A stretch of 64,000 nt of DNA from an uncultured Gammaproteobacteria bacterium (GCA_964525395.1 CAZGGU010000002.1:30263-94262); one strand, 5' to 3'. Positions 13,954 through 64,000 are shown, counted from the first letter of the stretch. Translations and numbers: made by a program. The notes: generated from the sequence alone by a model not told the origin.

Positions 13954-15950
13954 GATTTACCCTCCTGTGCAGTACAAGCGCTACAAGATCCACTCGGAGA
14001 TCTTACTTCACCTCGTCTTATTATATCCTTGCATGCGCTAGTATTTTTAAATTTATCATAGTAACAAAGACATCTGGCGGTTCCCCAATAGCTAAAGTTT
14101 TTTCCATCCCTGGCCAAGGAGTTGTTATATGACACAGCGTTTTCTACCTGTTTTTGCCAAGTCACGTCTCCGCGGTCATCAGCCTGAGTCCAAATCTTGA
14201 ATGGGTTAGGGAAGCTTCTTCTCATCTGGAACTTTCCCCATGATCCCCCCGCGCCGTTTCGCCCATAACCGTTTGGCGTATTGGTCTCACATTTGGCAAT
14301 CGATTTCCACATGTTTTGATTAGCCACGTTTGCCTCTGTTTGCTCAATTACTCTGTTTAATTTAGCTTCTGAATATGTGCATAACGGATCACCGAAATTG
14401 GTTGCAGAGGACTGGGGAAAATCTTTTTTAAGAGTAGTCATAATTTCCCGATATTTACCGTTGCAGGTGTTATTGCTTGGCCTAGCTGTAGCGCCTTCAA
14501 ACAGTCCGCCATTTTCTCCGGAGGTGCCTCCATCATTGGTAAGTGTCACGCCACTCATGGTCAGAATCATGCTCGTGGCGCCTGTATCAGTTTGCAGGGT
14601 CCCGCTAACTGTAAATTCATAGTGTCTTTTGGTTCCACCTGTGTTTGGCAGGCTCCACTGATAGATAAAATAGGTAGTATCTACGGGAACGCTAATTATT
14701 TTAGGTTTAGGATTGTCTGGTGTTTCAATGTTTGCGAAAAATCTATTACTGATTTGAACATTGGCCTTTAAGTTGCTTGGGTTAGTATCGAGCTTAGCGG
14801 TGTCAACATCGATGATTACTTTTACTGAAACCTTATCGCCTTTACTTCCTGCTGGGCAGTTTACTCTGCAGCCATCTGCTGTAGCAAGATAAGCCTCGCC
14901 CCCCACAAAAGTGACAGAGGTGGGTTTTTCCTGTGGACCCGGTGGCGGCTGTGTGACTTGATCAGGGTTATTGCCACAATAGTTTGCTCCGAAAAAGTCT
15001 CCAATCGGATTATTCACTACGCTACAGCCCAGTATTAGTATAATTATTACTAGTAGAAAAATTGCAAATATTACTCCCACCACAGGTCCCCATATCTCGA
15101 TTGTGGAAAGTAGTGTTCTGGCTACTGCTTTTTTGCCTTGAGACTTCAAAGTCTTTCCTAAAGCTTTTTTGGTTATTCTACCCCTTTTTCTCAGAGCTCT
15201 TCCGGCCGGCCTTGCTTTTGATGGAGCAGTGGACACTTGAGGTGTTGATTGCGGTTCTGGGAGCGGTTCTGGTATGGGTTCAGACCTTCCCCAGTCATCG
15301 AAATTGCTTGGGATGATTTCGGGATCAGGATAGTAGCCAATTTCAGATATAGACGGGGTGGTAGCGCTTGGGGTGGTGGTTGCGTTTTGTTTGGTAGCTT
15401 CTTGCGCACTGTTTTCTTGCTGAGGATTCAAGGAGACTGAAGGAACGCTTGATTCAATTTCGCCCCATTCAGATTTAAGTTGAGCTAAATCCTGCGGAGT
15501 AGTTTCAGAAATTTTTTCCCCAGCTTTTTGCATTTGGTCAAAGCGCGTCTTGGGTTGGGTGGGAGCATTTTCGATCGAAGTATTATTTGGTTTATCTTTT
15601 TTCTCTTCTGCTTCTGGTTTTTTAGGCTCAGGTTTTGGCTTTGGGGCAAAAGGCGCGTCCCATCCCGAAAGCGCATTGCTAAATACATTTCCCCCTGGAG
15701 TTTCTTTAGGCATTTCCTTAATCTCAGGTTTTTCTGGTTCAGGGGCTTGAATTCTTGATGCTAGCCAATCTTGTCGGGCAAGAAGTGTGCCCGGAATGTC
15801 TCTTATTCCTTTAGAGCGTAAAACTGCCTCAAGGTCTACCTGGGAACCACTCAGTGCAATTTCTTTTTCTTGCGGGGTAAGTAGGCTATAAACAAGCTCA
15901 AAACGCCTAGAGTTTCTTAGTCTTTTCTCAGCTGTAGGATCGTTTGCCAT
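13950..15950 (-). CDS. bitopic membrane protein with C-terminal Rpf/transglycosylase-like (lysozyme-like) domain; candidate T4SS cell-wall hydrolase (VirB1/PrgK/TcpG analog)
   Basis: Central TM VVGVIFAIFLLVIIILILG; Pro/Lys-rich linker; C-terminal KCETNTPNGYGRNGAGGSWGKFQM...W...SYWGTARCL resembles Rpf transglycosylase-like domain (CESGGNW..NGYYGGLQF...W...C). Confidence 0.5.
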   Translation of the reverse strand: MANDPTAEKRLRNSRRFELVYSLLTPQEKEIALSGSQVDLEAVLRSKGIRDIPGTLLARQDWLASRIQAPEPEKPEIKEMPKETPGGNVFSNALSGWDAPFAPKPKPEPKKPEAEEKKDKPNNTSIENAPTQPKTRFDQMQKAGEKISETTPQDLAQLKSEWGEIESSVPSVSLNPQQENSAQEATKQNATTTPSATTPSISEIGYYPDPEIIPSNFDDWGRSEPIPEPLPEPQSTPQVSTAPSKARPAGRALRKRGRITKKALGKTLKSQGKKAVARTLLSTIEIWGPVVGVIFAIFLLVIIILILGCSVVNNPIGDFFGANYCGNNPDQVTQPPPGPQEKPTSVTFVGGEAYLATADGCRVNCPAGSKGDKVSVKVIIDVDTAKLDTNPSNLKANVQISNRFFANIETPDNPKPKIISVPVDTTYFIYQWSLPNTGGTKRHYEFTVSGTLQTDTGATSMILTMSGVTLTNDGGTSGENGGLFEGATARPSNNTCNGKYREIMTTLKKDFPQSSATNFGDPLCTYSEAKLNRVIEQTEANVANQNMWKSIAKCETNTPNGYGRNGAGGSWGKFQMRRSFPNPFKIWTQADDRGDVTWQKQVENAVSYNNSLARDGKNFSYWGTARCLCYYDKFKNTSACKDIIRRGEVRSPSGSCSACTAQEGKS

Positions 15951-15953
15951 ATG

Positions 15954-17987
15954 TTAGAAAGTTTTAGTTGCATCATTAATGTTTTGACTAGGTAGAGGTG
16001 ATTCTGGCGCTGATTGAAAGCCAAAATCAACCGGAGCTGATGGTTGATGGGATGCAGGCGGAATGGGTGCAGGTTGGGTTGGGCTTGCAGCCTCAATATT
16101 CAGATTAGGGTTGGTTGTTATTTCTACTTTTTCTTCTTGGGGATGAGATTCGATGGCTGAGCCAAATTGTGATTCCAGTGTATTGTCAGGGCGCTGCTCT
16201 TGTTCTTTAAGTGCTTTTAGTTTGAGAACTTCTTCGGGATTGGAAGTAATAAGTTCATGTTCAAATGGCGCAGCCAAAACCTTCATGGCCACATGACTTT
16301 GGCCAGCGAAGAATAATCCTTCACCGATGTTGGCAGAGAGCAAGAGTTGTTTTTCTTGTTCGGAAAGATAGAAAATATTTGATACCAAATCAATCTGCGT
16401 TGGGCTTTGTTTCAGCAGCATTTGAATAGATGAGTTTGAAAGTACAGCCTTGCCGTAATCATTGGACAAAAAGTCCTGAACATCCTGTGTTGCAGTAGTT
16501 AGAGCAAGGTAATATTTACGAGCTCGCTTAGCAATTCCGTGTACAAAAGAAGCTGAATCTTGATACTTCATTAAATACCATGCCTCATCTAAGACTAGTA
16601 GGCGTTTTTTAAGATCTTTTCTTACCTTGGTCCAAATAAAATCAAGAATGATATGCATTGCCACAGGACGTAGTTGATCTTCAAGTCCTTGCGTTGAGAA
16701 AATAGTCAAAGGATTTTTAATATCAAAGTTAGACTGCTGATTAAATATTCCAGCCATGCTGCCTTTAATAAATTTCTCAAGCCTGAGAGCCAAGTCTCTA
16801 GCAATAGGATCTTCTGTGCCAAGCAAGACCTTGTATAAATCTTCCATAAGGGGTGGTTCTTTAGTTTGCGTTGAAGGATCAGGGGTAATTCCTTTTTGAC
16901 GATAGGTTTCCACTAGCGCGCGGTCAAGAATGGCGTCATGTTGTGCGTCAATGTCTCCCAAAACAATCCTGAGTAGGGCGTGCAGAGACAGGATTTTTAG
17001 TCCTAGTTCGTTTTCCCCCTCTTCGTATCTTCCTGAAAGATCAAAAGGATTAATCTTAATAGGTGAGGCTGGGGTAAACTCTACATATTCTCCTCCCATA
17101 GCTCGCGTAAGCTCTCCATACTCGCCTTCAGGGTCAATAACGATAACCTCTGTACCAAACATAAACTGCCTCATGATTTCTAGCTTGATCAAATAAGATT
17201 TTCCAGATCCTGACTTTCCGAATACTACCTCATTGCCGTTCTCAAGAGAATATCGATCAAAGACTATTAATGAGCCATTGAGTTGATTAATGCCATACAT
17301 GACGCCCTTATCTTGAGTAAGTGTGGCTGATGTGAAGGGAAAGGTGGATGCAAGACTGGTAGTGTCCATATTGCGCGTGAGAAGAAGCTCATCTCGCGCT
17401 AAAGGCACAGTGGATTTAAATCCCTCCTCCATCTGTAATGTTGAAGGTTTAGCGGTCAAGAGAATTGAAGCAAGAAGGGTCTTGAGTCTTTTTCCTGCTT
17501 CTTTTAGTTCTTCTAAATCATCAGCAACGAGTGTTACATAGAGGCTAAATTGGAAAAATCTCTCAATACCTTTGGCAAGCTCCTCTTGAACGGCAAGCGC
17601 ATCTTCGAGAGAGGCTTGAACTGTGGGATCCAAAACTTTTCCATCTTCTTCTTGCTTGGAAAGCGTAGCTTCCATTTCAGCGATTTTTCTTCTTAAGTCT
17701 CCCAAAATATCTCCAGATGACTGAGGATAGCAAAACATGGAGATGTTTAGTGATTGATCAAAATCAATTAAAGGCTCTAGCCAATTCGGCGAAACGTATC
17801 TTGGATATCCAACCACGAAAAATGTTTTAAAATATTTTTCTCCGACGCGAATGTGTCCGAAATCGACCTCTACGGATGGGGGAGCGATAATGTCAGTCAC
17901 ACTGTTCATTCCACGCTCGAAATGCTCAAGTGGTTTATTCGTTTTGGTTGGCATTGGAACAACAGGAGCTTTTTTTCGTCCAAACAT
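15954..17987 (-). CDS. virB4: type IV secretion ATPase VirB4/TrbE/PrgJ family (main body)
   Basis: Walker A FGKSGSGKSYLIK, Walker B LLVLDEAWYL, conserved VirB4 N-domain segment HIRVGEKYFKTFFVVGYPRYVSPNWLEPL. Confidence 0.8.
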   Translation of the reverse strand: MFGRKKAPVVPMPTKTNKPLEHFERGMNSVTDIIAPPSVEVDFGHIRVGEKYFKTFFVVGYPRYVSPNWLEPLIDFDQSLNISMFCYPQSSGDILGDLRRKIAEMEATLSKQEEDGKVLDPTVQASLEDALAVQEELAKGIERFFQFSLYVTLVADDLEELKEAGKRLKTLLASILLTAKPSTLQMEEGFKSTVPLARDELLLTRNMDTTSLASTFPFTSATLTQDKGVMYGINQLNGSLIVFDRYSLENGNEVVFGKSGSGKSYLIKLEIMRQFMFGTEVIVIDPEGEYGELTRAMGGEYVEFTPASPIKINPFDLSGRYEEGENELGLKILSLHALLRIVLGDIDAQHDAILDRALVETYRQKGITPDPSTQTKEPPLMEDLYKVLLGTEDPIARDLALRLEKFIKGSMAGIFNQQSNFDIKNPLTIFSTQGLEDQLRPVAMHIILDFIWTKVRKDLKKRLLVLDEAWYLMKYQDSASFVHGIAKRARKYYLALTTATQDVQDFLSNDYGKAVLSNSSIQMLLKQSPTQIDLVSNIFYLSEQEKQLLLSANIGEGLFFAGQSHVAMKVLAAPFEHELITSNPEEVLKLKALKEQEQRPDNTLESQFGSAIESHPQEEKVEITTNPNLNIEAASPTQPAPIPPASHQPSAPVDFGFQSAPESPLPSQNINDATKTF

Positions 17988-18649
17988 TATTTATTTCCTC
18001 CCTTCACAGTTTTTGCTGATACGTATGGATTATGAATTCCGTCGGTAAGGTTAGAGCGTCCAGCTTCTTCATTGAACGATTCATAGTAAAGCTCAATTAG
18101 CTCCTCTTTCTCTAGAACTTTTGACTTAAGGCCAACGCGCTGAAGTTCTTGCATAAGAGAACGTGCTTTTGAGACAAGCATAGGCTTGGCTTCTTTAGCA
18201 AAATCTTCTTTATTTCTAATATTGGTCACTGCTCCTGCGCCCTTTTCCAGAAAAGAATAGGTAAAAACAAGATAAAATTTCTTATCAAGGACTGTTTCTT
18301 TTTGGATAAGGTTGGCTACAAAATCCTTATAGAGAAGGATGTGTTTGGAAAGTAGGGGATTGTTCGTTTTCTTTGACTCTGCGTCTAGAAGATGAACGTA
18401 GGAGCTAATATCAAGCTTTCTGGAAACAATCAGAATCTGAATTGGGTAAGAAAGTGAATTTAGGAAAGAAGCATACGAGAGAATTTTAACTTGCTGCTCC
18501 TCAGGCGACTGCAAAGCGAAGTTGGTAGCGGTAATTTCTAGAACCATGCATGCCTGATTGCCGGGTAAAACCACTACGCTCTCGAATATGTCCTGAATTT
18601 CAATAAAGCGTTGAGTGGTTGTATTTATTTTTTGGGCAGATTTGCTCAT
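17987..18649 (-). CDS. separately encoded VirB4 N-terminal segment (split virB4), translationally coupled
   Basis: VVVLPGNQACMVLEITATNFALQSPEEQQVKILSYASFLNSL matches the first conserved block of the CagE/TrbE/VirB4 N-domain; stop overlaps next start as TAATG at 17985-17989. Confidence 0.5.
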   Translation of the reverse strand: MSKSAQKINTTTQRFIEIQDIFESVVVLPGNQACMVLEITATNFALQSPEEQQVKILSYASFLNSLSYPIQILIVSRKLDISSYVHLLDAESKKTNNPLLSKHILLYKDFVANLIQKETVLDKKFYLVFTYSFLEKGAGAVTNIRNKEDFAKEAKPMLVSKARSLMQELQRVGLKSKVLEKEELIELYYESFNEEAGRSNLTDGIHNPYVSAKTVKGGNK

Positions 18650-19885
18650 TTAGTTAAAAAGCTCCCTCCTAAGCTCTTCCCTTTTATCCACCGAAGTTAC
18701 TTCAATTGGCATAATTGGATGACCGGTTGCTTCGATTTGAACAATGTCGAATTTATTTTCTTCTTTAGGGTCTTCAAAGCTCAGGAAATATTTGCCATTT
18801 GAAACAGAGGTGGCTGAAGCAAATTGACCAAGGCCATTGGTTTTAAATGCTCTGACAGGATTATCTTCTTCGTCTTTTACTTCAACTAATACGTTCTGAA
18901 GTGGATTTCCTCTCGGGTCTTTTACAATTCCAGTGATAAGATTGGGCGCTTCAGGCATGCTAAGAACTCCTGCAGCCTTGGTTTGATTTGGCGCCACTTG
19001 CTTTACTCTTGGTTCCTGAGTTGCTTGAGGTGCTGGAGGGTTGGGCTGGCTCGTTGGCTGAGCAGGAATCACTGGAGGAGTTGAATGATCCTCAAGCTTA
19101 GAGTTGATCTTAAGAACCTCTCGCTCTAGTTCTTCTTTTTGACGAGTTGCTTCAGCAAGCATTTTTTCTAACTCTGCGATTTTTTGATCAGCAGCATCTT
19201 GATTTACGGCTGGAGCGGTTTGCTCAAGTGTTTTGCTTGCCTCAATTTGTTTTTCAAGAATCGCAGTTTCTGCATCTATTTTTTTCTCTGCAGCTTCCAC
19301 TTTTGCCTTTTGCTCTTGGTCTAGTTGATCTTGTTGAGCTTTTTCTTGAGCGGCTCTAGCAAGCTCGTCTGCGCTTGGTTGATTAGGAGTAGGAGCTACT
19401 TGTGCTGGCGCTGGGACTGGAGCTTGAATTGGTTGGATTTGTTGAACAGGTTGAGCTGAGATTTGATTTAATTCAATAGTTTGCATAACGGGAATATTTG
19501 GTGCTTGAACTGGCACGTGTGGCGCAGGCAAGGGGATGACTTGGGGTATCTGCTTCTCGGAAACTGTTTGCTTCTGGGTTTTAGTGATATCTCCACCATC
19601 TTTTCCATAAATATATTTCGTGGGGGAAAGCATGGCTCTGAAAAGATTGATAAACATAGTGTCCATTGGGCGTCCGTCCACGGGAACGAAGGTAAAGATT
19701 ATTCCTATAGTTACAATCACAATTGAGATTGGCCAAGAAATGATGTGAGGAATTGGCAACAGGAAAGAGATAAACCAGCCAATCAAAACGACAACTGCCA
19801 AATACACAAACTGCCTAACGGTCATAGAACCGATAAGCTTAAATTGAAAGCCTGTAATGTCTTGGGGAATTGGGTGATTCTCCAT
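18650..19885 (-). CDS. PrgI/VirB3-like two-TM protein fused to long Pro/Gln-rich coiled-coil and C-terminal globular domain
   Basis: N-term IPQDITGFQFKLIGSMTVRQFVYLAVVVLIGWFISFLL followed by second TM matches PrgI-family topology/motif (P.D...K....T.RQ); central coiled-coil EQKAKVEAAEKKIDAETAILEKQIE. Confidence 0.45.
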   Translation of the reverse strand: MENHPIPQDITGFQFKLIGSMTVRQFVYLAVVVLIGWFISFLLPIPHIISWPISIVIVTIGIIFTFVPVDGRPMDTMFINLFRAMLSPTKYIYGKDGGDITKTQKQTVSEKQIPQVIPLPAPHVPVQAPNIPVMQTIELNQISAQPVQQIQPIQAPVPAPAQVAPTPNQPSADELARAAQEKAQQDQLDQEQKAKVEAAEKKIDAETAILEKQIEASKTLEQTAPAVNQDAADQKIAELEKMLAEATRQKEELEREVLKINSKLEDHSTPPVIPAQPTSQPNPPAPQATQEPRVKQVAPNQTKAAGVLSMPEAPNLITGIVKDPRGNPLQNVLVEVKDEEDNPVRAFKTNGLGQFASATSVSNGKYFLSFEDPKEENKFDIVQIEATGHPIMPIEVTSVDKREELRRELFN

Positions 19886-20013
19886 CTATTCTCTTTCCCT
19901 GCCTAATATTAACAATAGAATAATATGTGAAAAATCCCATTTCAAGGCTATCGAAATAGATCAGGTTTAGAAGAAATTGGCCTTAAATGTGAAAAGCCAT
20001 TTCTGACTAGAAG

Positions 20014-28694: not shown

Positions 28695-28781
28695 GGAGAG
28701 GTCGCATAGTGGTCTAGTGCGGATGTCTTGAAAACATCTGTGGGTGCAAGCCTACCGCGAGTTCGAATCTCGCTCTCTCCG
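28695..28781 (+). tRNA. tRNA-Ser (anticodon UGA), type II long variable arm
   Basis: Acceptor GGAGAGG/TCTCTCC, D-arm GCA-TAGTGGTCTAG-TGC, anticodon stem GATGT/ACATC with loop CTTGAAA, T-arm GCGAG-TTCGAAT-CTCGC. Confidence 0.85.
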
Positions 28782-28815
28782 CATATAGCGAGATGAGAAG
28801 TTTATGGTGAGCTTG

Positions 28816-28843
28816 TCGAATCCAAATCTCGCTCTCTCCGCAC
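28816..28843 (+). repeat. direct repeat of the tRNA-Ser 3' end (tcgaatc..atctcgctctctccgca), att-like remnant
   Basis: 17-nt perfect repeat of 28767-28783 at 28827-28843 plus upstream tcgaatc; also hairpin atctcgct/agcgagat at 28767-28790. Confidence 0.6.
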
Positions 28844-54904: not shown

Positions 54905-55040
54905 ATCATCCAGTAAGGAATTGGGTAAGTGAGGCGTAAATCCTCCGCAGTGCCGCTACCGTAAAGTCGGAAAACCACCTTATGTAGTTCTCGAGCAAGA
55001 TTGTCGTCACACAAACTTCTCGTCTAGAGGAGTTTTTTTT
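54905..55040 (+). ncRNA. candidate cobalamin (B12) riboswitch
   Basis: AGUAAGGAAUUGGGUAAGUGAGGCGUAAAUCCUCCGCAGUGCCGCUACCGUAAAGUCGGAAAACCACC resembles the core AAGGGAA..GGUGAAAAUCC..GCCACUGUAA..B12-box; followed by run of 8 T and AGGAG SD; located between nrdJ and PduO-type ATR. Confidence 0.45.
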
Positions 55041-55081
55041 ATGGATTCGACAAGCTCACCATAATATTGAGTAGGGTCGAA

Positions 55082-55642
55082 ATGATTATGAGCAAAATTT
55101 ATACAAGAACAGGAGATACGGGTCAAACTTCACTTTTTGATGGCAAAAGAGTTCTCAAGTCAGACCCCAAGGTGGAAACTTATGGCACGATTGATGAATT
55201 AAATTCTACGATTGGTTTTGCCTCTACTTTTATTAAAGACAAACTTATCCTTAAAGAACTTGAAGAAATTCAGAATGATCTTTTGGAGGTTGGCTCCTCA
55301 CTTGCTGTTACCGACACGCTACCTTTAGATCAGTTAGAGCCTCGACCCGAGGAATTTGAAAAGCTGATTGATGAGTTAACTGTTAAGATGCCTCTTCTCA
55401 CGCAGTTTATTTTACCTAGTGGGGGAAAGGGTGGAGCAGCACTGCATGTAGCTAGAACTGTGGCTAGAAGAGCTGAAAGAAAGGTGATTGATCTTGCTCA
55501 ATCAGAAGAAGTGGACCCAATACTGATTAAATATCTTAATCGTTTGTCAGATTTACTCTTCACTTTTGCCCGCTACGTAAATTATAAAGAGAAATCCCTC
55601 GGCAAGCTCGGGACAAGAGAAAAAGTTTGGAAGAAAAAATGA
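55082..55642 (+). CDS. ATP:cob(I)alamin adenosyltransferase, PduO type
   Basis: MIMSKIYTRTGDTGQTSLFDGKRVLKSDPKVETYGTIDELNS matches PduO/MMAB N-terminal signature; listed ORF starts at TTG 55067, ATG at 55082 more likely. Confidence 0.75.
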   Translation: MIMSKIYTRTGDTGQTSLFDGKRVLKSDPKVETYGTIDELNSTIGFASTFIKDKLILKELEEIQNDLLEVGSSLAVTDTLPLDQLEPRPEEFEKLIDELTVKMPLLTQFILPSGGKGGAALHVARTVARRAERKVIDLAQSEEVDPILIKYLNRLSDLLFTFARYVNYKEKSLGKLGTREKVWKKK

Positions 55643-56757
55643 TAGAAACACAGGCACGAACATATACTCCAGAATTTGATCAAGAAGCATACGCTAGACT
55701 TTGGGCGTTACCAGTCTCAGAAAGAGTAGTCGAAAGAGAAAAACTAGATAAGTTAACCGGAAAAAACTTGGAAACAATGCTGGCTGAGCGCTTTAATGTT
55801 TTAGTCAGCAAATATAATTACGATATGATTGACGGTCAGCTTTGGGGAGAAGGGATGAATGAGCCGGCAATTGATTCATTTCGCCGAGGAGTTGTGTGGA
55901 GAAGAACTCATGGAAACCCTGATGATTGGCCCAGAGAAAAAGCAGAAATAGTAGGCTTTGAAATAATCGAGCAAATGCTTAGAGAAGAAAAGGATGTACT
56001 CTTAATTTCTCCTCCAGGGGGAAGTTATAAGCACAATTTTTATGATATTTTTAAGTGGAAAGATGGAAAAATTGAGGCTAGACGTTATTCATCTGCGCTA
56101 GAGATTGAGGATTACCAGAAATTGTTAGGAGTTGAACATAGTACTGCTGAAGAGTTTTTGGCAAACCCAATTGATATTTCTCAGACATTTATTTCAGCTG
56201 ATGAAGCACATAAATATTTACATAGAGATCACGAAACAACGAGTCTTGAGGTTTATGAGAATTACATTTTACCAGGAACTAGGGAGGCTATGTATGAAGT
56301 TCTTCAGGCATATTATGATGGAGATGAAGAGAGGCAGGAATTTTGGCTTAATGCATATGTAAATGCAGCAGATGAGATAAATGATTGGGCTCAGAATTTA
56401 ATTGATCAAGAGTTTAATGTCCCTGTGACTCCAATTGAATTTAGTGCATTTGATTATGCGAGACTTGCTAGCCAGGAGGTTAGAGAGGTTTCTACTGGTT
56501 GCGGATTGTCTGGCGGATTTAAATTAGGTGGCGATAGGGGTCCAGCGAATCCTTGGACTGTAAGTGAGTTTGGTAAAAAAGCTGAGGCATGCGGAACTTG
56601 TAATCAGTCGACTGAAGATGATCATTATCATTGTCCGGGTTGTGGCGGTTCATACGAGAGTGAAAGAAGCAAGCCTGCAGGTTCTAGGACCAAAGTCTGC
56701 GCTAAGGAGGTTACAGGGGATGTGGGAGGAATTTGTGGCTTCAAATTCGCTTGTTAA
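55627..56757 (+). CDS. hypothetical protein with C-terminal Cys-rich zinc-ribbon-like cluster
   Basis: CGTCNQSTEDDHYHCPGCGG...VCAKEV...ICGFKFAC; no other recognisable motif. Confidence 0.3.
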   Translation: MEEKMIETQARTYTPEFDQEAYARLWALPVSERVVEREKLDKLTGKNLETMLAERFNVLVSKYNYDMIDGQLWGEGMNEPAIDSFRRGVVWRRTHGNPDDWPREKAEIVGFEIIEQMLREEKDVLLISPPGGSYKHNFYDIFKWKDGKIEARRYSSALEIEDYQKLLGVEHSTAEEFLANPIDISQTFISADEAHKYLHRDHETTSLEVYENYILPGTREAMYEVLQAYYDGDEERQEFWLNAYVNAADEINDWAQNLIDQEFNVPVTPIEFSAFDYARLASQEVREVSTGCGLSGGFKLGGDRGPANPWTVSEFGKKAEACGTCNQSTEDDHYHCPGCGGSYESERSKPAGSRTKVCAKEVTGDVGGICGFKFAC

Positions 56758-56819
56758 CTGTAAAGATTTTGTTATCTTAATTTAAACCTAAATTTCGGCC
56801 ATTGTGGTAATATAGTTGT

Positions 56820-57209
56820 ATGGATCCCAACGCAAAACCAGATCAATTAATTCAGCCTGCAACCGTTCACCAAGGTGGGAGGGTAGAGGCTACGCCTATT
56901 GCCCCAAAACAGCATGTGGAATCATCTCATCCTATGCCAGAAATTCCACAAGTAGTTTCTGATGCGGGAGTCGCTGTGGTTGATACCGCTCCAAAGCTCA
57001 GCCACACCATGTTTAATCAAAACCCAGAGCCTAAAGTTGAATTGCCTCAAAATCAATCGCCAGCTTGGCTTGAGCAGCAGATTAAAGTTGATCTAAAAGC
57101 GCTCGATAATAACACTAATGATTCAAAAAGCTGGCTTGGAAGATTAAGAATTGCATTTCTTGAAAAACTCAGAATGAAAAAACTTGATCCGCATCCGACT
57201 GGAGTATAG
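56820..57209 (+). CDS. hypothetical protein (129 aa)
   Basis: ORF ending 2 nt before the T4CP gene. Confidence 0.3.
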   Translation: MDPNAKPDQLIQPATVHQGGRVEATPIAPKQHVESSHPMPEIPQVVSDAGVAVVDTAPKLSHTMFNQNPEPKVELPQNQSPAWLEQQIKVDLKALDNNTNDSKSWLGRLRIAFLEKLRMKKLDPHPTGV

Positions 57210-57211
57210 TT

Positions 57212-59569
57212 ATGGAAATTAATTTTGCATCATTTATTGTAGCTTTTATGGCTGTGCTTTTGGTCATGACAGGTGCTGGCGCACTAGTGGCTGTACTTGG
57301 TTATTATTCTTTTATCGCATATAAATTCCGCAATCGTAAAAAAGAAGCTCTCAAGAGAACACTTTTGCAAGTTGCACTTCCTAGGGACAATGAAGTAAAA
57401 ATTGATGCAGCAGAGCAGTTATTTGCTTCCTTTGGCTCTGTTTATAAAGGTGGTCGAACAGCCTTTCTTAAACCTCAGCCTATTTTTTCTTTTGAAATCG
57501 TAGGAATGCCAGGGGATATTCGGTTTTATGTTTCTGCTCCAAATAAATATCGAGATTTTGTGGAAAAACAGATAAACGGTGCCTATCCCGAGGCTGAAAT
57601 TGAAGAGGTTTCTGAACACCATTCGCCTAAGGAGGGATATGTAATTGGAAATGACTATAATATTTTCTCTGAAACTGGAAAAGTAGCTTTTACCTCACTT
57701 CATCTTAAAAAGCATAGTTATGAGCCTATTAAAACTTATAAAGATTATCCCGTGGACCCACTCTCTTCAATTACTTCTACTTTAGCGAAGATGACAGAAG
57801 GAGAGGGCGCAGCAATTCAGATTTGTATTTCGCCTGCTGATCCTAAATGGAAGAAAATTGGTAAAGCCTGGTTATCTAATACTAAGAAACATGAATCAAA
57901 TCCTGAAACTGCTAAATATTCACATGATGCGAAAGAGCTTGAGGGGGTGGAGACAAAGATCGGTAAACCAGGATTCGATTCGATCATTCGCATAGTAGTT
58001 TCATCTTCAACGCATGATTCAGCCGAAGCGCATCTTTCTAATATTAAAAACGCATTTAGCCAGTATTCGGGTGCTAATTCTTTTAGTAGTTCAAAACATC
58101 ATAACAAAGAATTTATGGATGAATTTATTTACCGTTATATGCCTAAGCATGGGCATATATCGATTCTTAATAATGAAGAGCTAGCTACTCTTTTTCATTT
58201 CCCAAATAAAGGCGTAGCAACACCTCATATTTTTTGGGTTGCTTCAAAGCGTGCTCCAGTGGCAGCCAATGTGCCTACATCAGGATTGTATCTAGGAAAA
58301 AGTTCATATCGTGGTTTGTCTCGAGACGTTTATATCGGAGACGATGATAGAAGAAGGCATATGTATATAATCGGAAAAACAGGTACAGGAAAAACAGAGT
58401 TTCTTAAGCAGATGATTATGCAGGACATTAAGGGTGGGAAGGGCTTAGCAGTAATCGATCCTCACGGAGATTTAATTGAAGATATTCTTACGATGGTTCC
58501 GCCGGAAAGAAGCGAGGATGTAATTCTTTTCGATCCTTCAGATTTGGCTCGTCCAATGGGACTTAATATGCTTGATGCTCATTCAGAAGAAGAAAAGCAC
58601 TACATAGTGTCTTCTGTGATTGGGCTTATGTACAAGCTCTTTGATCCTAATAAAACAGGTATTATCGGTCCTAGATTTGAGCATGCTGTTCGAAACGCGA
58701 TGCTTACAGTTATGTATAAGCCTGGAGCGACTTTTATTGAAGTTGTGCGTATTTTGACCGATGCGAAGTTCGTTCAAGAATTATTGCCCCTCGTTCAGGA
58801 TCCTATTGTTAAGCGTTATTGGACTGATCAAATTGCTCAAACTTCCGACTTTCATAAATCAGAAGTTCTTGACTATATCGTTTCCAAATTCGGTCGTTTC
58901 GTTACGAATAAAATGATCAGAAATATCATTGGTCAGTCTGATTCAGCTTATGATTTTCGAGACGTAATGGATAATGGCAAAATTTTGCTCGTTAATTTGT
59001 CTAAAGGTAAGATTGGAGAAGAGAACTCTAATTTCTTAGGTTTAATCATTGTTCCTAGAATTTTAGTAGCTGCAATGAGTAGACAGAATATTCCGCAGGA
59101 ACAGCGTCGAGACTTCTTCCTTTATGTGGACGAGTTTCAGAATTTCGCAACACCTGATTTTGCCCAGATTCTTTCTGAGGCACGTAAATATCGTTTAAAC
59201 TTGATCGTAGCGAATCAGTTTATCGGGCAGATGGAAGAAGAAGTTAAGAATGCTATTTTTGGAAATGTAGGCACTTTGGCTTCATTCCGCGTGGGCGTGA
59301 CGGATGCTAATTATCTTCAGCATGAATTCCAGCCAACATTTACTGAGGCAGATCTTATAAATATCGACCGTTTTAACTGTTATATGAGAACACTAGTTAA
59401 TGGAGAACCTATCTTGCCATTCTCACTAGACACTACAAAGGATATCGTGAAAGAAAAAGCTATGATGAATCCTAGAGTCGCAGAGCTAATTAAGCAATTA
59501 TCACGACTTAAATATGGGAAAGATGTGAATACAATTGAGCAGGTTATAGGGGAACGCGCAAGGCTTTAA
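57212..59569 (+). CDS. virD4: type IV coupling protein (VirD4/TraG/TcpA-like ATPase)
   Basis: N-terminal TM; Walker A IIGKTGTGKTEFL, Walker B LYVDEFQNF, ANQFIGQ sensor region; 785 aa. Confidence 0.7.
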   Translation: MEINFASFIVAFMAVLLVMTGAGALVAVLGYYSFIAYKFRNRKKEALKRTLLQVALPRDNEVKIDAAEQLFASFGSVYKGGRTAFLKPQPIFSFEIVGMPGDIRFYVSAPNKYRDFVEKQINGAYPEAEIEEVSEHHSPKEGYVIGNDYNIFSETGKVAFTSLHLKKHSYEPIKTYKDYPVDPLSSITSTLAKMTEGEGAAIQICISPADPKWKKIGKAWLSNTKKHESNPETAKYSHDAKELEGVETKIGKPGFDSIIRIVVSSSTHDSAEAHLSNIKNAFSQYSGANSFSSSKHHNKEFMDEFIYRYMPKHGHISILNNEELATLFHFPNKGVATPHIFWVASKRAPVAANVPTSGLYLGKSSYRGLSRDVYIGDDDRRRHMYIIGKTGTGKTEFLKQMIMQDIKGGKGLAVIDPHGDLIEDILTMVPPERSEDVILFDPSDLARPMGLNMLDAHSEEEKHYIVSSVIGLMYKLFDPNKTGIIGPRFEHAVRNAMLTVMYKPGATFIEVVRILTDAKFVQELLPLVQDPIVKRYWTDQIAQTSDFHKSEVLDYIVSKFGRFVTNKMIRNIIGQSDSAYDFRDVMDNGKILLVNLSKGKIGEENSNFLGLIIVPRILVAAMSRQNIPQEQRRDFFLYVDEFQNFATPDFAQILSEARKYRLNLIVANQFIGQMEEEVKNAIFGNVGTLASFRVGVTDANYLQHEFQPTFTEADLINIDRFNCYMRTLVNGEPILPFSLDTTKDIVKEKAMMNPRVAELIKQLSRLKYGKDVNTIEQVIGERARL

Positions 59570-59610
59570 GCTTCAAAATTAACCTCTTTTGGTTTATAAT
59601 ACACTCAACT

Positions 59611-59658
59611 GCTTCTGTAGCTCAGCCCCGATTAAATCGGGGTCAGCGGTTAGAGCGG
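59611..59658 (+). repeat. partial duplicate of tRNA-Ile 5' half interrupted by an 18-nt perfect hairpin (ccccgattaaatcggggt)
   Basis: gcttctgtagctcag + ccccgattaaatcggggt + cagcggttagagcg repeats nt 1-26 of the downstream tRNA (59668-59693), with cag duplicated at the insertion point. Confidence 0.6.
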
Positions 59659-59667
59659 TTAATAAAA

Positions 59668-59740
59668 GCTTCTGTAGCTCAGCGGTTAGAGCGCTATCCT
59701 TATAAGATAGATGTCCTTGGTTCGATCCCAAGCAGAAGCA
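59668..59740 (+). tRNA. tRNA-Ile (anticodon UAU as encoded)
   Basis: GCTTCTG-TA-GCTC-AGCGGTTA-GAGC-G-CTATC-CTTATAA-GATAG-ATGTC-CTTGG-TTCGATC-CCAAG-CAGAAGC-A. Confidence 0.75.
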
Positions 59741-59814
59741 CTTCGATAAACTCAGCGTAAATACTTCTTGCTCTTCAATAGGGGTGACACTTTCAAATAT
59801 TGCATAGGGTTTGA

Positions 59815-60024
59815 CTAAATTAGGAATTTCCATTCCACCAGGAGCATGTTTAATGGTTGGAGGTGTGTATAGGCGGAATAAGGATGATCCCCGAAATTAG
59901 GAGATTCGTATCTCTGAATCTGAATCACTCTTTGACCGTCTTCAACAATCTCCACTACTTTATCAGTAGCTTGATATGGATTTTCAATAAAAAATAATAC
60001 TTCTTTGGCGAGCTCTGTGCTCAC
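59815..60024 (-). CDS. small hypothetical protein (69 aa) between tRNA-Ile and recombinase
   Basis: ORF only; the overlapping 59594..59833 ORF covers the tRNA and is judged spurious. Confidence 0.2.
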   Translation of the reverse strand: MSTELAKEVLFFIENPYQATDKVVEIVEDGQRVIQIQRYESPNFGDHPYSAYTHLQPLNMLLVEWKFLI

Positions 60025-60059
60025 GAGGGAATTTAAGAAAAGTCAACAAAGCAATAGCT

Positions 60060-60920
60060 TTATAATTCTGTGAGGATTTGATTTTCAGGTGCTCTGTCTG
60101 GAACGAATTCTAGGTATCTCTCAGTGGTGGAGATTCTTTTATGTCCAAGGTTCTTAGAAAGTAAAACGATAGATGCGCCATGTTTAAGGTGATGGGCTAC
60201 ATATGTGTGTCTTAAGTCATTAACCTTCGCATTTTTAATCTCAGCGAGCCTGAAGTATCTTTCAACACTAGTTCTAATATTTCTAATTAGGAATGGTTTT
60301 CCTGATTTAGTGATAAACAAATGATCCTCTTCTACTTGTGGGCGAACATCTAGGTATTTTTTAAGTGCTTCTTGAGCCCTTTTGTTTAATGGTACAGTTC
60401 TTTCCTCGTGTTTTTCCATAGCCGGAATGTGGAGGGAATCTTTTTGAATATCTGATAATTTAAGTGCAGTAAGTTCTCCGATTCTGATTCCAGTTTGGAG
60501 TAAAAGTTCGATAATAGCTGACATTCTGGCGTCATTTCTTGCAGCATCTCTTAAAGCTCTATACTCTGTAGGAGTAAGGATTCTGGGAGGTGCGAGCTGA
60601 TATTTAGGGTGAGCTACGAGTAGGGAGGGATCATCTGTAACATATTCGTTAACTTTAAGGAATCTATAGAAAGTTCTAGTAGAGTTAATCTTTCTTGAAA
60701 CCGACTTAGGAGTATAGCCTTCTTCGTTCATTTTTCCAAGAAAAGCTTCGAGGTCAGCCTGAGAAACTTCATGAACATTTTGCTTTTCGAGGCTGTTCAA
60801 AAAGTCTACTAGCTGCTCGATATCTTTACCGTATGCTACAATTGTTGAGGTAGAATGACCCTTGGATTTAAGAAATTCTTTGAACTCCGCACTGGCATCT
60901 ACCAACTGAATCTGATTCAT
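60060..60920 (-). CDS. tyrosine site-specific recombinase (XerC/XerD family / integrase)
   Basis: Catalytic-domain motifs ..RIGELTALK.., HTYVAHHL.., LGHKRISTTERYLEF (R..H..R..Y). Confidence 0.7.
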   Translation of the reverse strand: MNQIQLVDASAEFKEFLKSKGHSTSTIVAYGKDIEQLVDFLNSLEKQNVHEVSQADLEAFLGKMNEEGYTPKSVSRKINSTRTFYRFLKVNEYVTDDPSLLVAHPKYQLAPPRILTPTEYRALRDAARNDARMSAIIELLLQTGIRIGELTALKLSDIQKDSLHIPAMEKHEERTVPLNKRAQEALKKYLDVRPQVEEDHLFITKSGKPFLIRNIRTSVERYFRLAEIKNAKVNDLRHTYVAHHLKHGASIVLLSKNLGHKRISTTERYLEFVPDRAPENQILTEL

Positions 60921-60921
60921 A

Positions 60922-61302
60922 ATGGCCTATAATATCACAAAATCGAACCAAGCGTCAACAGCTAAAACGATTTTATTTGTTATTGCAGTAATAATTAGCC
61001 TCATAATAATTAATATTTTAGTGCGTTCAATTTATGATACTTGGCGAAAAAAAGACTTAGTTGTTAAAGCCAAAACTAATTTAGCCCAGCAAAAAGAAGA
61101 AAATAGGAGGTTAAAAATGCAACTTTCTATGGTAAATGACCCAAATTTTGTCGAAAGAGAAGCTCGGGATAAGCTTTTCTTGGTAAAGCCTGGGGAGTCA
61201 AGCGTAATCGTGCCTCAGGATTTGGTAGATAAAAAAGAGAATAAAGAAATTATAATCGTGCCTAATTATCTACAGTGGATTAATTTGATATTGGGAAGAT
61301 AG
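60922..61302 (+). CDS. septum formation initiator family protein (FtsB/DivIC-like)
   Basis: Single TM + coiled-coil (RRLKMQL) + EREARDKLFLVKPGE motif. Confidence 0.6.
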   Translation: MAYNITKSNQASTAKTILFVIAVIISLIIINILVRSIYDTWRKKDLVVKAKTNLAQQKEENRRLKMQLSMVNDPNFVEREARDKLFLVKPGESSVIVPQDLVDKKENKEIIIVPNYLQWINLILGR

Positions 61303-61377
61303 TTGGTGGCGAGGTTTTCGTGCTTGAAGGCACATATGGAAGCTTACGCCTCTTATTTCTCGCCACCGTTTGCGAAG

Positions 61378-62415
61378 CTAATTCTCTACTTCTTTAGAGT
61401 AAGGAGCAGATCTTGTCAGAGAAGGATTGTTTGGCAGATTGATGAATGGACAGATCCGATTCTTCTGCGCCATAACGAACTGACCGGCAAGAATGATTGC
61501 GGGGGTGCCGTGTTCAATCTTGGAAGCCGGAAGACTGCTCTGTGTCTGGTATCGTTTGCGCAAAATGCGCGAGTGGTTCCAATCCTTGATCCTATCAAAA
61601 AAGAATATCGTCAAAACAATTAGGAAACTAATTCCAAAAACAAAAGCTACAACTGCTGTCAGGATAAGAATCCAACTCAGCGTACGTTCGACTCCTACTA
61701 GAAAGAAGGAGAAAACGATTGTGCCTGCTGCAGCCACGCTCCAAGGATAGATCACCTTAAATCGACCTTGAAACCAAAACCAACCTACGATATTTCGACC
61801 GTATCTTAGGTTTGTCCATTCGTTGAATTTGAAAATAGGCCAGCAAGGAGCCAAAAACAGAACGGCTAGCAGGTAAAACAATTTGTCAAAGAATGAAATT
61901 ACTGTTCTTACCCAACGCTTGTGCTTATTGTTTTCCATATATGAAATTAGTAGAAAGGATGAAATTGCTATCATGCCGATTGTGGTAAAGAATATCACCA
62001 TGAAAATTGTAAAAAAGAACTTATCAGGAGCGATCAGATAAACGACCATACTACTCAGGGTGATGATGACAGAGAGTGCGATCATCCAGAGTCGGACTGC
62101 TCTATAAAGACGAGCTTTGAAAAACCAAAAAATTGGTGCCCAAATCAGTACAACACGCATGTAGTGGCAGAGATTTTCTGCATAGCCTTGTCGGACTCTA
62201 CCGCCTTGGTTCATCCACCAGAGATAGACGCGATAGTGCCAGGAATTCTGGTTTACCGACATTGACTTGCGGTGTCGATCCACAGGATTTCCCGTGAATG
62301 ACATGTTTTTCGCACTCCTTTCTCTGTAGATATAGATTACTTCGCAAAATTTAAACGTGCATATAACCTCCAGTAGTTGGCCGCATTTGGCCAGGCTGTG
62401 ATTAAGTTTGAGCAT
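61378..62415 (-). CDS. polytopic membrane protein of unknown function (start probably internal)
   Basis: >=7 hydrophobic segments; overlapping + strand ORF 61303..61623 judged spurious. Confidence 0.35.
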   Translation of the reverse strand: MLKLNHSLAKCGQLLEVICTFKFCEVIYIYRERSAKNMSFTGNPVDRHRKSMSVNQNSWHYRVYLWWMNQGGRVRQGYAENLCHYMRVVLIWAPIFWFFKARLYRAVRLWMIALSVIITLSSMVVYLIAPDKFFFTIFMVIFFTTIGMIAISSFLLISYMENNKHKRWVRTVISFFDKLFYLLAVLFLAPCWPIFKFNEWTNLRYGRNIVGWFWFQGRFKVIYPWSVAAAGTIVFSFFLVGVERTLSWILILTAVVAFVFGISFLIVLTIFFFDRIKDWNHSRILRKRYQTQSSLPASKIEHGTPAIILAGQFVMAQKNRICPFINLPNNPSLTRSAPYSKEVEN

Positions 62416-62485
62416 TCTATCAAACTATAAGTCAGAAAACAATTAAAGCATTGAAATGTTGGCTTCATAAGATTATATTTCCCAC

Positions 62486-63115
62486 ATGAGCGAATTTAAT
62501 GAGCGCGATGTAGTATTTTTGAAGCAGGCTGGTGAAGCAGTGGTTGATCCAATATATCCAGGTCTTCTAGAAGGTATTTTAAGGCTAAAGCAAGAAGGTG
62601 TAGGGAGGTCTATTGTGATGGATAGAGCGAATGAAGTGGGGAAAACGGTACGAAGAGATGTGGGATATATTCTTCCATTAAAGCCTGATCAATCTCAGCA
62701 TTTGGTAATTTTCGTTAATGGTGGAATTTGCATAACTGAACCAAGTGATCCGAAAGAGAAAGCAGTTTACAAAGCAAAGATGCAACCAAACAATAGATCT
62801 CTCTCTGTAAATTTAGATGTCTCTATGGAAGATTTAATTCGTTTATGGATGGATGGTAGTACTTTTTTGAAATCAAAAGTAATAGTAGCAAATGAGAATG
62901 AAGAATCAGTCCCAGTGATTAATAAAGCAATTCAAGATGCGATTTTAATAGCTTTTGAGCTCAGAGACCAGAGAAGAGAAGCGCATCAGTCAAGTATTTC
63001 TCAGACCGCAGCAGAGCTTGTAAGAGTGCTTGATATTACATTTGATACACACTTATCAGACTCAGAAATAGAGGGTCTTGAAGTTTCTCCAGACCAAGAT
63101 GAGGAAATTGCTTAA
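62486..63115 (+). CDS. hypothetical protein (209 aa)
   Basis: ORF with acidic C-terminus; no motif recognised. Confidence 0.3.
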   Translation: MSEFNERDVVFLKQAGEAVVDPIYPGLLEGILRLKQEGVGRSIVMDRANEVGKTVRRDVGYILPLKPDQSQHLVIFVNGGICITEPSDPKEKAVYKAKMQPNNRSLSVNLDVSMEDLIRLWMDGSTFLKSKVIVANENEESVPVINKAIQDAILIAFELRDQRREAHQSSISQTAAELVRVLDITFDTHLSDSEIEGLEVSPDQDEEIA

Positions 63116-63257
63116 TTTGTTGCGGGGCTAGGAGTTGCGCCTAGCCTGTGAGATTATGAGCCTCACGTGCACTGTACACTACCCCGCGCGTAATGAGTAT
63201 TATAGCACTTGATTAGCCTCGGGTCAAACCTATAAAGTTTAATTTAGCCTTGATTTC

Positions 63258-63266
63258 TGTTATAAT
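63258..63266 (+). promoter_or_regulatory. extended -10 element TGTTATAAT upstream of tRNA
   Basis: tgttataat 11 nt before tRNA 5' end. Confidence 0.45.
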
Positions 63267-63277
63267 TATCGAGACTT

Positions 63278-63352
63278 GGCTGCGTAGCTCAGTGGTAGAG
63301 CGGTGTCTTCATAAGGCAATGGTCGCAGGTTCGAACCCCGCCGCAGCCACCA
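63278..63352 (+). tRNA. tRNA with CAU anticodon (Met or lysidine-Ile), CCA encoded
   Basis: GGCTGCG-TA-GCTC-AGTGGTA-GAGC-G-GTGTC-TTCATAA-GGCAA-TGGTC-GCAGG-TTCGAAC-CCCGC-CGCAGCC-A-CCA; one mismatch each in anticodon and T stems. Confidence 0.55.
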
Positions 63353-63365
63353 AATCACCCCAACT

Positions 63366-64000
63366 ATGAATATTGATCAACTAAAAAATAAAAAAATTGC
63401 AGTAATTGGTGAAGGAGTAGAGGGAAAATCTTCTTTTGAATATCTTAAATCACAAGGCGCAGATGCAGAAGTCTTAGATCAAGCGCAGGGTGAAGATTAC
63501 TTAAATGATCTTGATCGTTTTGATTTGATTGTTCGTTCGCCAGGCGTTAAGGCTTTAGACCTCCAAAAATTAGTAGATCCTAAAAAAATAACTTCTCAGA
63601 CTAAATTATTTTTTGAACTTGCTCCAACTAAAAATATTATTGGAGTAACAGGTACGAAAGGAAAGGGAACTACTTCTACTCTTATTTATGAAATGTTAAA
63701 AGCAGCTGGATTTGATGTCTATCTAGGGGGAAATATTGGTGTTCCACCTTTTAATTTCATGGATAAATTGACACCTGAATCATGGGTAGTTTTGGAAATG
63801 TCGTCATTTCAGCTTCAGGATCTTCAAAAAAGCCCGCATATTGCAGTCATGCTTATGGTGACATCGGAACATCTTGATTACCACAGCGATATCGAGGAGT
63901 ATATTGAGGCGAAGAGGAATATTCTATCCCACCAGACCACAGATGATATCGCAATAGTAAATAGAGATTATCCAGCCTCGAATGAATCCGATATATATAC
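63366..64000 (+). CDS. murD: UDP-N-acetylmuramoylalanine--D-glutamate ligase (3'-partial, runs off window)
   Basis: KKIAVIGEGVEGKSSFEYL...DLIVRSPGV...IGVTGTKGKGTTSTLI Mur ligase N-domain and P-loop; no stop before window end. Confidence 0.75.
   Translation, partial: MNIDQLKNKKIAVIGEGVEGKSSFEYLKSQGADAEVLDQAQGEDYLNDLDRFDLIVRSPGVKALDLQKLVDPKKITSQTKLFFELAPTKNIIGVTGTKGKGTTSTLIYEMLKAAGFDVYLGGNIGVPPFNFMDKLTPESWVVLEMSSFQLQDLQKSPHIAVMLMVTSEHLDYHSDIEEYIEAKRNILSHQTTDDIAIVNRDYPASNESDIY

Follow-up and report, generated by a model that had tools for sequence, protein, structure and literature searches.

A disabled tRNA-Ile copy with an inserted 17-nt palindrome in a Patescibacteria genome: probable scar of a small GIY-YIG nuclease cassette

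Downstream of a VirD4-like ATPase gene in the genome of an ultra-small bacterium, a truncated copy of a tRNA-Ile gene, interrupted by a palindrome, precedes the intact gene. The window (i.e., the whole stretch of 64,000 nt analysed; GCA_964525395.1, CAZGGU010000002.1:30263-94262) belongs to a member of the Patescibacteria (Candidate Phyla Radiation, CPR) close to Candidatus Levybacteria; in the genome collection, the closest relatives of its 785-aa VirD4-like open reading frame (ORF) are found in Levybacteria metagenome-assembled genomes (73-76%). From left to right, the following features can be distinguished at the locus: (i) the gene of the VirD4/TraG-like coupling-type ATPase (57212-59569, plus strand), a protein of 785 aa with an N-terminal hydrophobic segment and matches to three Pfam families of type IV coupling proteins (T4CP); (ii) a sigma-70-type promoter (59572-59600, plus strand), with a -35 box TTCAAA at 59572-59577, a -10 box TATAAT at 59595-59600 and 10 of 12 consensus matches, which overlaps the 3' flank of the VirD4-like ORF; (iii) the disabled tRNA-Ile copy, the two parts of which (59611-59625 and 59643-59657, plus strand) are separated by the palindrome (59626-59642); (iv) an 11-nt spacer (59657-59667, plus strand); (v) the intact tRNA-Ile(UAU) gene (59668-59741, plus strand), detected by ARAGORN and by the Rfam tRNA model (70.2 bits); (vi) a hypervariable 318-nt spacer (59742-60059) that holds an orphan 69-aa ORF without Pfam match (59815-60024, minus strand); (vii) the gene of a 286-aa Xer-type tyrosine recombinase (60060-60920, minus strand; Pfam Phage_integrase and Phage_int_SAM_1); and (viii) divIC (60922-61302, plus strand), which codes for a DivIC/FtsB-like septum formation initiator (Pfam DivIC, 46.7 bits) and is syntenic with xer. 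The VirD4-like gene, the partial tRNA copy, the intact tRNA-Ile, the 69-aa ORF and the opposite-strand recombinase all lie where the original prediction for this locus had placed them. From 55525 to 61020, the tRNA fragment included, the window agrees letter for letter with an independent Logan assembly (L161, SRR14271365).

The left part of the disabled copy, GCTTCTGTAGCTCAG, corresponds to tRNA nt 1-15 and exactly repeats 59668-59682, while the right part, TCAGCGGTTAGAGCG, corresponds to nt 12-26 and exactly repeats 59679-59693; when the first letter of the palindrome is counted, the exact match on the left extends to tRNA nt 16 (59611-59626). The resulting 26-nt match to the 5' end of the tRNA is beyond chance (0 of 100 shuffles). 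Within the D-loop of the copy stands the palindrome CCCCGATTAAATCGGGG, a 7-bp stem with a 3-nt loop; the original prediction had spoken of a perfect 18-nt hairpin, and the inserted palindrome is indeed present, with a length of 17 nt. It is flanked on both sides by the 4-nt repeat TCAG and is unique in the window (one copy, versus 0.10 expected at up to three mismatches). On either strand of 59300-60200, no other part of the tRNA was matched at 13/16 nt or better, so there is no repeat of its 3' end, and neither a second copy of the fragment nor an att core was found elsewhere in the window. The promoter is the original tRNA-Ile promoter, which now lies upstream of the fragment with the spacing seen in naive alleles: the distance from the end of the -10 box to tRNA position 1 is about 10 nt (8-12) in the naive relatives L166, L162 and L164, as it is in the majority of plain tRNA-Ile genes. 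Two simple identities of the palindrome were rejected, namely that of an intrinsic terminator (no T-run follows the hairpin) and that of a repeated element (its copy is single in the 64 kb). The 14 exact matches to it in IMG/VR contigs are ordinary terminators with T-runs and have no tRNA or GIY-YIG gene near them, and a regular-expression search for CCCCG-type hairpins over the 160 related loci described below yielded nothing systematic.

Scans of genomes and metagenomes had returned no relative closer than 76%, and the decisive relatives came from a protein look-up, where the 90%-identity cluster of the ATPase contained two further sequences, the contigs of which were examined. The nearest relative, L165 (SRR29973912), has 96% (VirD4) and 93% (Xer) amino acid identity to the window, and its flanks are 80-84% identical at the nucleotide level. 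In L165, the same promoter is followed by a fragment and palindrome (5334-5379) identical to those of the window at 46 of 46 nt, the left part (5334-5348) being identical throughout and the right part (5366-5379) through tRNA nt 25. After a further 28 nt comes an 84-aa ORF with a GIY-YIG domain (5408-5662; Pfam 6e-15), and its final codons, ...GAATGGTTAATAAGTAAAGAAAAGCTTCTGTAG, enter an identical tRNA-Ile gene at 5653-5726. In L166, L162 and L164, with 94, 82 and 80% VirD4 amino acid identity to the window, respectively, the -10 box leads directly to the tRNA, and both palindrome and ORF are absent. The 11-nt spacer of the window, GGTTAATAAAA, appears to be a remnant of the 3' end of the deleted ORF, since it aligns to L165 5634-5652, i.e., GGTTAATAA[GTAAAGAA]AA (8-nt gap; codons ..W L I..); an alternative alignment pairs it with the last 10 nt of the L165 ORF, with 2 substitutions. 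In the window, no GIY-YIG ORF with catalytic residues is present and tblastn finds no protein remnant; about 11 nt of the ORF tail are left, and the loss amounts to 254-263 nt, almost the entire ORF included. Near relatives thus show three allelic states, that is, empty (L166, L162, L164), filled (L165) and scar (the window), and all three occur among relatives with 94-96% VirD4 identity. Because the spacer matches the ORF tail, L165 is filled, and L166, L162 and L164 are naive, the window is read as an ORF-deleted scar.

In Patescibacteria assemblies, a search with the nuclease of L165 gave 287 homologues (E ≤ 1e-10), of which many lie on short contigs; the phage genome collection contained none. 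When the DNA around six of these homologues was read, a cassette of palindrome and ORF was found in every case, located in tRNA-Ile (L168, L169), tRNA-Lys (L172, L178), tRNA-His (L194) and tRNA-Arg (L201) genes. The order of an intact cassette is: tRNA promoter, disabled copy from tRNA nt 1 to about 27, nuclease ORF, and complete tRNA. For instance, at the tRNA-Lys(UUU) gene of L172 the order reads GGGCCGGTAGCTCAG / CCCCGATTAAATCGGGG / TCAGCGGTAGAGCAGG / ORF / intact tRNA, and the same plan, which is also that of L165, is found at tRNA-Lys(CUU) in L178, tRNA-His(GUG) in L194 and tRNA-Arg(UCU) in L201. The palindrome breaks the D-loop after GCTCAR and is flanked by the 4-nt repeat (signature GCTCAR-CCCCGATTWAATCGGGG-TCAR). 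The 17-mer occupies the identical D-loop position in L165, L168, L172, L194 and L201, and it has the opposite orientation in L178, where the repeat is TCAA; in general, the 4-nt repeat (TCAG or TCAA) follows the own D-loop of each target tRNA.

The duplicated piece is identical to the 5' end of the target tRNA itself in L165, L172, L178, L194 and L201. In L168 and L169, a full replacement tRNA takes the place of the 5' duplication, and the duplicated piece belongs to the displaced resident tRNA: (i) the L168 cassette carries a complete foreign tRNA-Ile, with the resident tRNA in two flanking pieces and a copy of the palindrome beside each; and (ii) in L169, a further variant, the 17-mer lies within the leftover copy of the resident tRNA, downstream of the inner tRNA. 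The cassette ORF begins a few nucleotides past approximately tRNA nt 27 and is not preceded by a separate promoter; in five of the seven ORFs (that of L165 included), the stop codon is a TAG that lies within the tRNA, in most cases the conserved U8-A9-G10. All seven are 80-86 aa long, 70-82% identical and reduced to the GIY-YIG catalytic domain (Pfam 4e-16 to 2e-14), with Y5, Y16, R26, H30 and E62 invariant; the match to the NCBIfam model "group I intron endonuclease" is weak (26.6 bits versus a cut-off of 56). Since the ORF, present in L165 and in the six other cassettes, is gone from the window, the latter holds a scar and is not itself a member of the family.

The truncated tRNA-Ile with its hairpin is, very probably, the left end of a GIY-YIG cassette that invaded the tRNA-Ile(UAU) gene and the sole gene of which, of about 84 aa, has since been deleted. 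That the feature is the scar of such a cassette is held with high confidence, and that the cassette spreads by homing with moderate confidence. As to the way in which the cassette may move and persist, the following steps are proposed: (i) the cassette ORF would be transcribed from the tRNA promoter and RNase P would cut the tRNA from the shared transcript, so that the host would keep an essential tRNA and the parasite would gain expression; (ii) the conserved D-arm of naive tRNA genes would be the site cut by the nuclease, and repair of the cut would introduce a copy of the cassette, as suggested by the 4-nt repeat and by the palindrome, which always follows GCTCAR; and (iii) the palindrome might disable the leftover copy, so that it neither serves as a target nor misfolds with the genuine tRNA. 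What remains in the window is probably an inert structured leader of 57 nt, with which the tRNA-Ile is probably co-transcribed and from which RNase P would free it. In the predicted fold, the leader makes its own hairpin and the cloverleaf is kept (minimum free energy -48.9 kcal/mol, z = -3.2). From 55000 to 64000 in the window, the only known RNA families at Rfam E ≤ 1 are tRNAs, with no ribozyme or intron.

A wider reading can be put forward tentatively, as one that may well turn out not to hold: the cassettes would represent an undescribed class of selfish elements of Patescibacteria, about 0.3 kb in size, homing into the D-arms of tRNA genes (Ile, Lys, His, Arg), with the palindrome as an essential recognition or immunity element, the tRNA promoter hijacked and U8-A9-G10 used as stop codon; the host would be kept alive by the duplicated 5' part of the tRNA or by a whole replacement tRNA. 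If so, this cassette and related ones would explain the nested tRNA genes, the flipped tRNAs and the non-phylogenetic distribution of tRNA-Ile(UAU) types described below.

With regard to the genes on either side of the scar, the VirD4-like ORF scores above the gathering cut-offs of Pfam TrwB_AAD_bind (37.4 bits), T4SS-DNA_transf (24.8 bits) and TraG-D_C (25.5 bits) and far under the cut-offs of all NCBIfam T4CP equivalogs. No relaxase or channel genes of a type IV secretion system (T4SS) accompany it. The nearest VirB4-like ATPase (15954-17987, minus strand; P-loop_TraG, AAA_10 and DUF87), which lies among same-strand ORFs without Pfam matches in the T4SS-like locus to which the original prediction referred (12600-20000), is about 39 kb away, and not about 30 kb as originally estimated. 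Homologues of the VirD4-like ATPase are abundant (5951 at E ≤ 1e-100); around them, 160 loci were fetched from genome and metagenome collections, 120 of which have at least 1.5 kb of downstream sequence. Among these 120 loci, tRNA-Ile(UAU) lies within 3 kb of the VirD4-like gene in 84, a Xer-like gene lies within 6 kb in 65 (on the opposite strand in 64 of them), and both occur together in 59, often with divIC next; divIC adjoins xer in 35 related loci. The gene order ribonucleotide reductase (RNR)-cobalamin adenosyltransferase (CobAT)-VirD4-tRNA-Ile-xer-divIC is kept across Levy-, Gottesman-, Davies- and Woesebacteria, and RNR and cobalamin adenosyltransferase genes stand upstream of the ATPase in Levy-, Gottesman-, Woese- and other lineages. 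In L013, a near-threshold cobalamin riboswitch (6364-6476; 31.0 versus 31.5 bits) lies beside the cobalamin adenosyltransferase and class II RNR genes; the window has no match to this riboswitch from 55000 to 64000. The VirD4-like ATPase is a conserved chromosomal gene of Microgenomates that lies outside the scar.

The recombinase is full-length and Xer-like (positions 2-272 of 290 of the NCBIfam XerD model are aligned). Its best NCBIfam matches are XerD (174 bits, cut-off 330), XerC (166, cut-off 335) and XerA (159, cut-off 220); scores under the equivalog cut-offs are to be expected for a deep-branching phylum, and strict equivalog membership is not reached. In the Protein Data Bank (PDB), the best matches are XerD (1a0p, E = 6.7e-25) and XerA (5hxy, E = 4e-22). 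Orthologues of exactly 286 aa, 79-93% identical and adjoined by divIC, occur in L164, L165, L168 and L169; that is, the window (scarred allele) shares an orthologous xer with loci in the empty (L164) and filled (L165, L168, L169) states. On these sequence comparisons, the recombinase behaves as a housekeeping-type Xer that is not implicated in the scar, and it is, together with the VirD4-like ATPase, a vertically inherited neighbour unrelated to the cassette. The GC content is flat across the region, without any shift at the locus, and the cumulative GC skew makes no turn there; no dif site came to light. The spacer between tRNA and xer (59742-60059) has no nucleotide match to L165 and, in general, is non-homologous among relatives whose flanking genes are 80-96% identical; its orphan ORFs in the window, L164, L165, L168 and L169 (69, 71 + 155, 143, 159 and 197 aa) are unrelated and have no Pfam match. 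On the other side of the tRNA, L163 has an HTH_23 gene between ATPase and tRNA.

The original prediction took the tRNA fragment and the recombinase for the att scar of an integrative element, possibly the boundary of an integrated or decayed element that had delivered the VirD4-like gene and other T4SS components. This proposal draws on the fact that tRNA genes are classic integration sites, on the presence of a tyrosine recombinase 318 nt from the tRNA, and on the non-homology of the intervening spacer between close relatives. Nevertheless, it is highly improbable: the repeated piece comes from the 5' end of the tRNA and lies 10 nt in front of the gene, without the corresponding 3' repeat; the gene order, with tRNA-Ile and xer together in 59/120 loci, is kept across candidate phyla; there is no GC shift; and xer, whose best matches are XerD, XerC and XerA, is orthologous in all allele types. 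No block with its own integrase was found to be present or absent between repeats, the succession VirD4-tRNA-Ile-xer-divIC being conserved. Relatives with the same gene order and a recombinase of this affinity are, in fact, the outcome that the prediction itself had named as speaking against it. What survives is that a mobile element left a scar here, this element being a GIY-YIG cassette of about 0.3 kb unrelated to the recombinase. Nor is it at all likely that no mobile element was involved and that replication slippage duplicated the 5' end of the tRNA, followed by a chance palindromic insertion. The repeats are short, close and exact, and no gene lies between them, as slippage would have it; but an identical palindrome with the 4-nt repeat is found at this point of the D-loop in five further tRNA genes, L169 has it in a leftover tRNA copy, every such locus has a homologous GIY-YIG ORF, and the palindrome is present at the orthologous locus of the nearest relative, the ORF tail of which is matched by the window spacer.

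Nested tRNA genes, in which a complete tRNA is inserted at the anticodon loop of another one, occupy this very locus in at least nine relatives and also have the promoter upstream of the outer 5' half, so the fragment might be the remnant of a replacement tRNA inserted between nt 35 and 36, with the outer halves since decayed. This origin is very unlikely, since the window copy breaks at nt 25/26 instead of 35/36 and lacks a 3' half, its leader and trailer form no helix (-3.1 kcal/mol versus a median of -9.1 in nested loci), and palindrome and ORF tail match the GIY-YIG cassette exactly. Finally, fragment and palindrome may have been retained for a function, as a pre-tRNA processing or stability element or a protein-binding site, and not as an inert scar. 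The 46/46 identity between window and L165 in the midst of flanks of about 80%, the conservation of the 17-mer across cassettes with ORFs only 70-82% identical and the stability of the leader fold (z = -3.2) all agree with this possibility, which is still an unlikely one: naive alleles do without the fragment, recent transfer explains the identity equally well, and no Rfam family is matched.

Several observations, in turn, weigh against the interpretation as a scar of a homing GIY-YIG cassette: (i) the window has neither a nuclease gene nor a recognisable protein remnant, and its membership rests on its relatives; (ii) the intact tRNA of the filled allele keeps an unbroken D-arm and, therefore, immunity by disruption of the target site does not explain how the cassette is protected from its own nuclease; (iii) the duplicated 5' piece is target-specific, which ordinary homing of a copy from a different tRNA does not predict; (iv) the cassette proteins consist of the catalytic domain only, without a DNA-binding domain, and their nearest solved relatives are UPF0213 proteins; and (v) the full identity of the fragment within flanks of about 80% speaks for either recent transfer or selection for some function.

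The nearest described system to the cassette is SegB in the tRNA gene cluster of phage T4. According to two reports, SegB is a free-standing GIY-YIG endonuclease, the cut of which falls within a tRNA gene and produces 2-nt 3' ends, and it can drive duplication of the tRNA locus (PMC2330249; PMC13096335). Like the cassette, the SegB-type gene is described there as sitting among or beside tRNA genes and as being inherited preferentially with flanking tRNA sequence (PMC2330249; PMC13096335). Unlike the cassette ORFs (80-86 aa, catalytic domain only), SegB is a phage protein with DNA-binding modules; the cassettes, unlike SegB, sit inside a cellular tRNA transcription unit, duplicate the 5' part of the tRNA and carry a fixed 17-nt palindrome. 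The closest solved sequences, the UPF0213 proteins 1zg2 (BH0048, E = 6e-4) and 1ywl (EF2693, E = 1e-3), have the same size and a single domain; unlike for the cassette ORFs, no association with tRNA genes and no mobility is documented for them in the material searched.

Within the same phylum, group I introns have been reported at position 35/36 of Patescibacteria tRNA genes (PMC13011429). Together with intron-encoded GIY-YIG endonucleases of the I-TevI type, they are among the closest known systems. Cassettes resemble them as selfish insertions in tRNA genes that leave tRNA function intact, and differ from them in that no Rfam intron match (E ≤ 1) occurs in 55000-64000, the insertion lies in the D-arm and not in the anticodon loop, and the target gene is made whole again through a duplicated 5' part and not through splicing. 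Islands carried by integrases also target tRNA genes and leave a partial tRNA copy, but they duplicate the 3' part at the far end, on a kilobase scale and with an integrase of their own, whereas the cassette duplicates the 5' part across 0.3 kb, and no integrase takes part. GIY-YIG ORFs are also known from non-intron insertions of CPR rRNA genes, which are reported to be sparse and probably not to spread by homing (PMC11270868); these share with the cassettes the presence of GIY-YIG ORFs in structural RNA genes outside introns, and differ in that they concern rRNA, with neither tRNA cases nor a palindrome reported (PMC11270868). No description of tRNA-invading GIY-YIG cassettes, of nested tRNA genes or of the palindrome was found in the literature searched. 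The cassette family appears to be undescribed and akin to free-standing homing-endonuclease cassettes, the window copy being a degraded relic.

These results remove a false lead, as neither the VirD4-like ATPase nor the recombinase is island cargo; both belong to the vertically inherited core of genes. They also indicate that partial tRNA copies in ultra-small bacteria can arise from tiny nuclease cassettes and not from integrases, which bears on island prediction and on tRNA annotation in metagenome-assembled genomes. Should the cassettes be an active homing system, they would provide: (i) a parasite able to live in an essential single-copy tRNA gene without an intron; (ii) a mechanism for the horizontal replacement of tRNA genes; and (iii) nucleases of very small size (80-86 aa), the palindrome of which is defined and the tRNA target conserved.

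The tRNA-Ile(UAU) gene shows other forms of instability among the related loci. A survey with a profile of 93 tRNA-Ile(UAU) genes revealed half-genes flanking complete genes in about 15% of loci. In nine tRNA-Ile and two tRNA-Met loci, the anticodon loop of one tRNA is split exactly between nt 35 and 36 by a complete second tRNA (CTTA|...|TAA). The inner tRNA has a short leader and trailer, and the outer promoter serves both tRNAs; the outer gene is intact in some loci and decayed in others, without any ORF. Pairing between leader and trailer is stronger in nested loci (median -9.1 kcal/mol) than in plain tRNAs (-2.9 kcal/mol; p = 1e-5), and in L103 the nesting comprises three levels, correctly ordered. 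Such "Russian-doll" loci of tRNA-Ile(UAU) or tRNA-Met(CAU) include L013 13810-13998, L111 8430-8616, L128 3603-3777 and L102 4518-4692, and also L021 7837-8070, L103 6070-6380 and L094 5590-5850, the host tRNA being of the same kind in all of them. In five nested loci, Rfam at E ≤ 1 detects tRNAs only, and the nested genes are missed by ARAGORN in intron mode. This mode does detect tRNA-Met, Asn, Leu(CAA) and Arg(UCU) genes with anticodon-loop inserts of 160-240 nt (L003 7045-7307, L024 2955-3262, L055 9259-9513, L094 5215-5494, L096 8013-8285, L124 12382-12668 and L158 5275-5597), which probably correspond to the group I introns described in Patescibacteria (PMC13011429).

The types of tRNA-Ile (e.g., A1-U72 "AGGCCC") do not follow the ATPase tree; in L128, for instance, the outer gene is the native tRNA-Ile type of the clade and the inner gene is of the Levybacteria type. 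Furthermore, 16 of the 84 loci with tRNA-Ile(UAU) have this gene on the opposite strand (L001, L004, L014, L019, L081, L086 and others) and, because these are scattered over the ATPase tree, the unit of promoter plus tRNA has been flipped repeatedly. The locus had also been suggested to be a recombination hotspot, and on a small scale it is one (empty, filled and scarred alleles, flipped and nested tRNAs, a variable spacer), but not as an island boundary. L168 joins the nested tRNAs and the cassettes, because its GIY-YIG cassette carries a whole replacement tRNA; as no ORF-bearing version of the 35|36 inserts was found among the loci, a link between the two phenomena is offered as a hypothesis.

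In the window genome, AUA is decoded by the tRNA-Ile with UAU anticodon, which is unusual among bacteria, and the gene is kept at this place in most Microgenomates loci; two tRNA(CAU) genes (63119-63188 and 63278-63352) lie 3.4 kb downstream of it. Partial duplications of tRNA-Ile (L084, L002), tRNA-Pro (L038), tRNA-Glu (L079) and tRNA-Ser (L019) genes are found together with members of further GIY-YIG subfamilies, and the hairpins there are different ones. The window itself has a second scar, which follows tRNA-Ser(UGA) (28695-28782) and reaches 28841: the 5' strand of the T-stem, GCGAG, is followed by a 33-nt insert, ATGAGAAGTTTATGGTGAGCTTGTCGAATCCAA, and the last 17 nt of the scar (28825-28841) exactly repeat the 3' end of tRNA-Ser(UGA). 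The motif of this insert also occurs after tRNA-Ser(UGA) in L019, and in L002 it forms the 3' end of a different GIY-YIG ORF, of 93 aa, downstream of tRNA-Ile. The appearance of this scar is that of a relic, without ORF, left by a second family of cassettes with the T-loop as target. Lastly, L020 (12561-12625) and L085 (5117-5180), which are not neighbours in the ATPase tree, share a homologous, structured 64-nt insert (CCCCGTA...TACGGGG, with an inner hairpin); a leftover 3' fragment of a tRNA closely follows the intact tRNA-Ile there, and it is the T-stem of this fragment that the insert interrupts.

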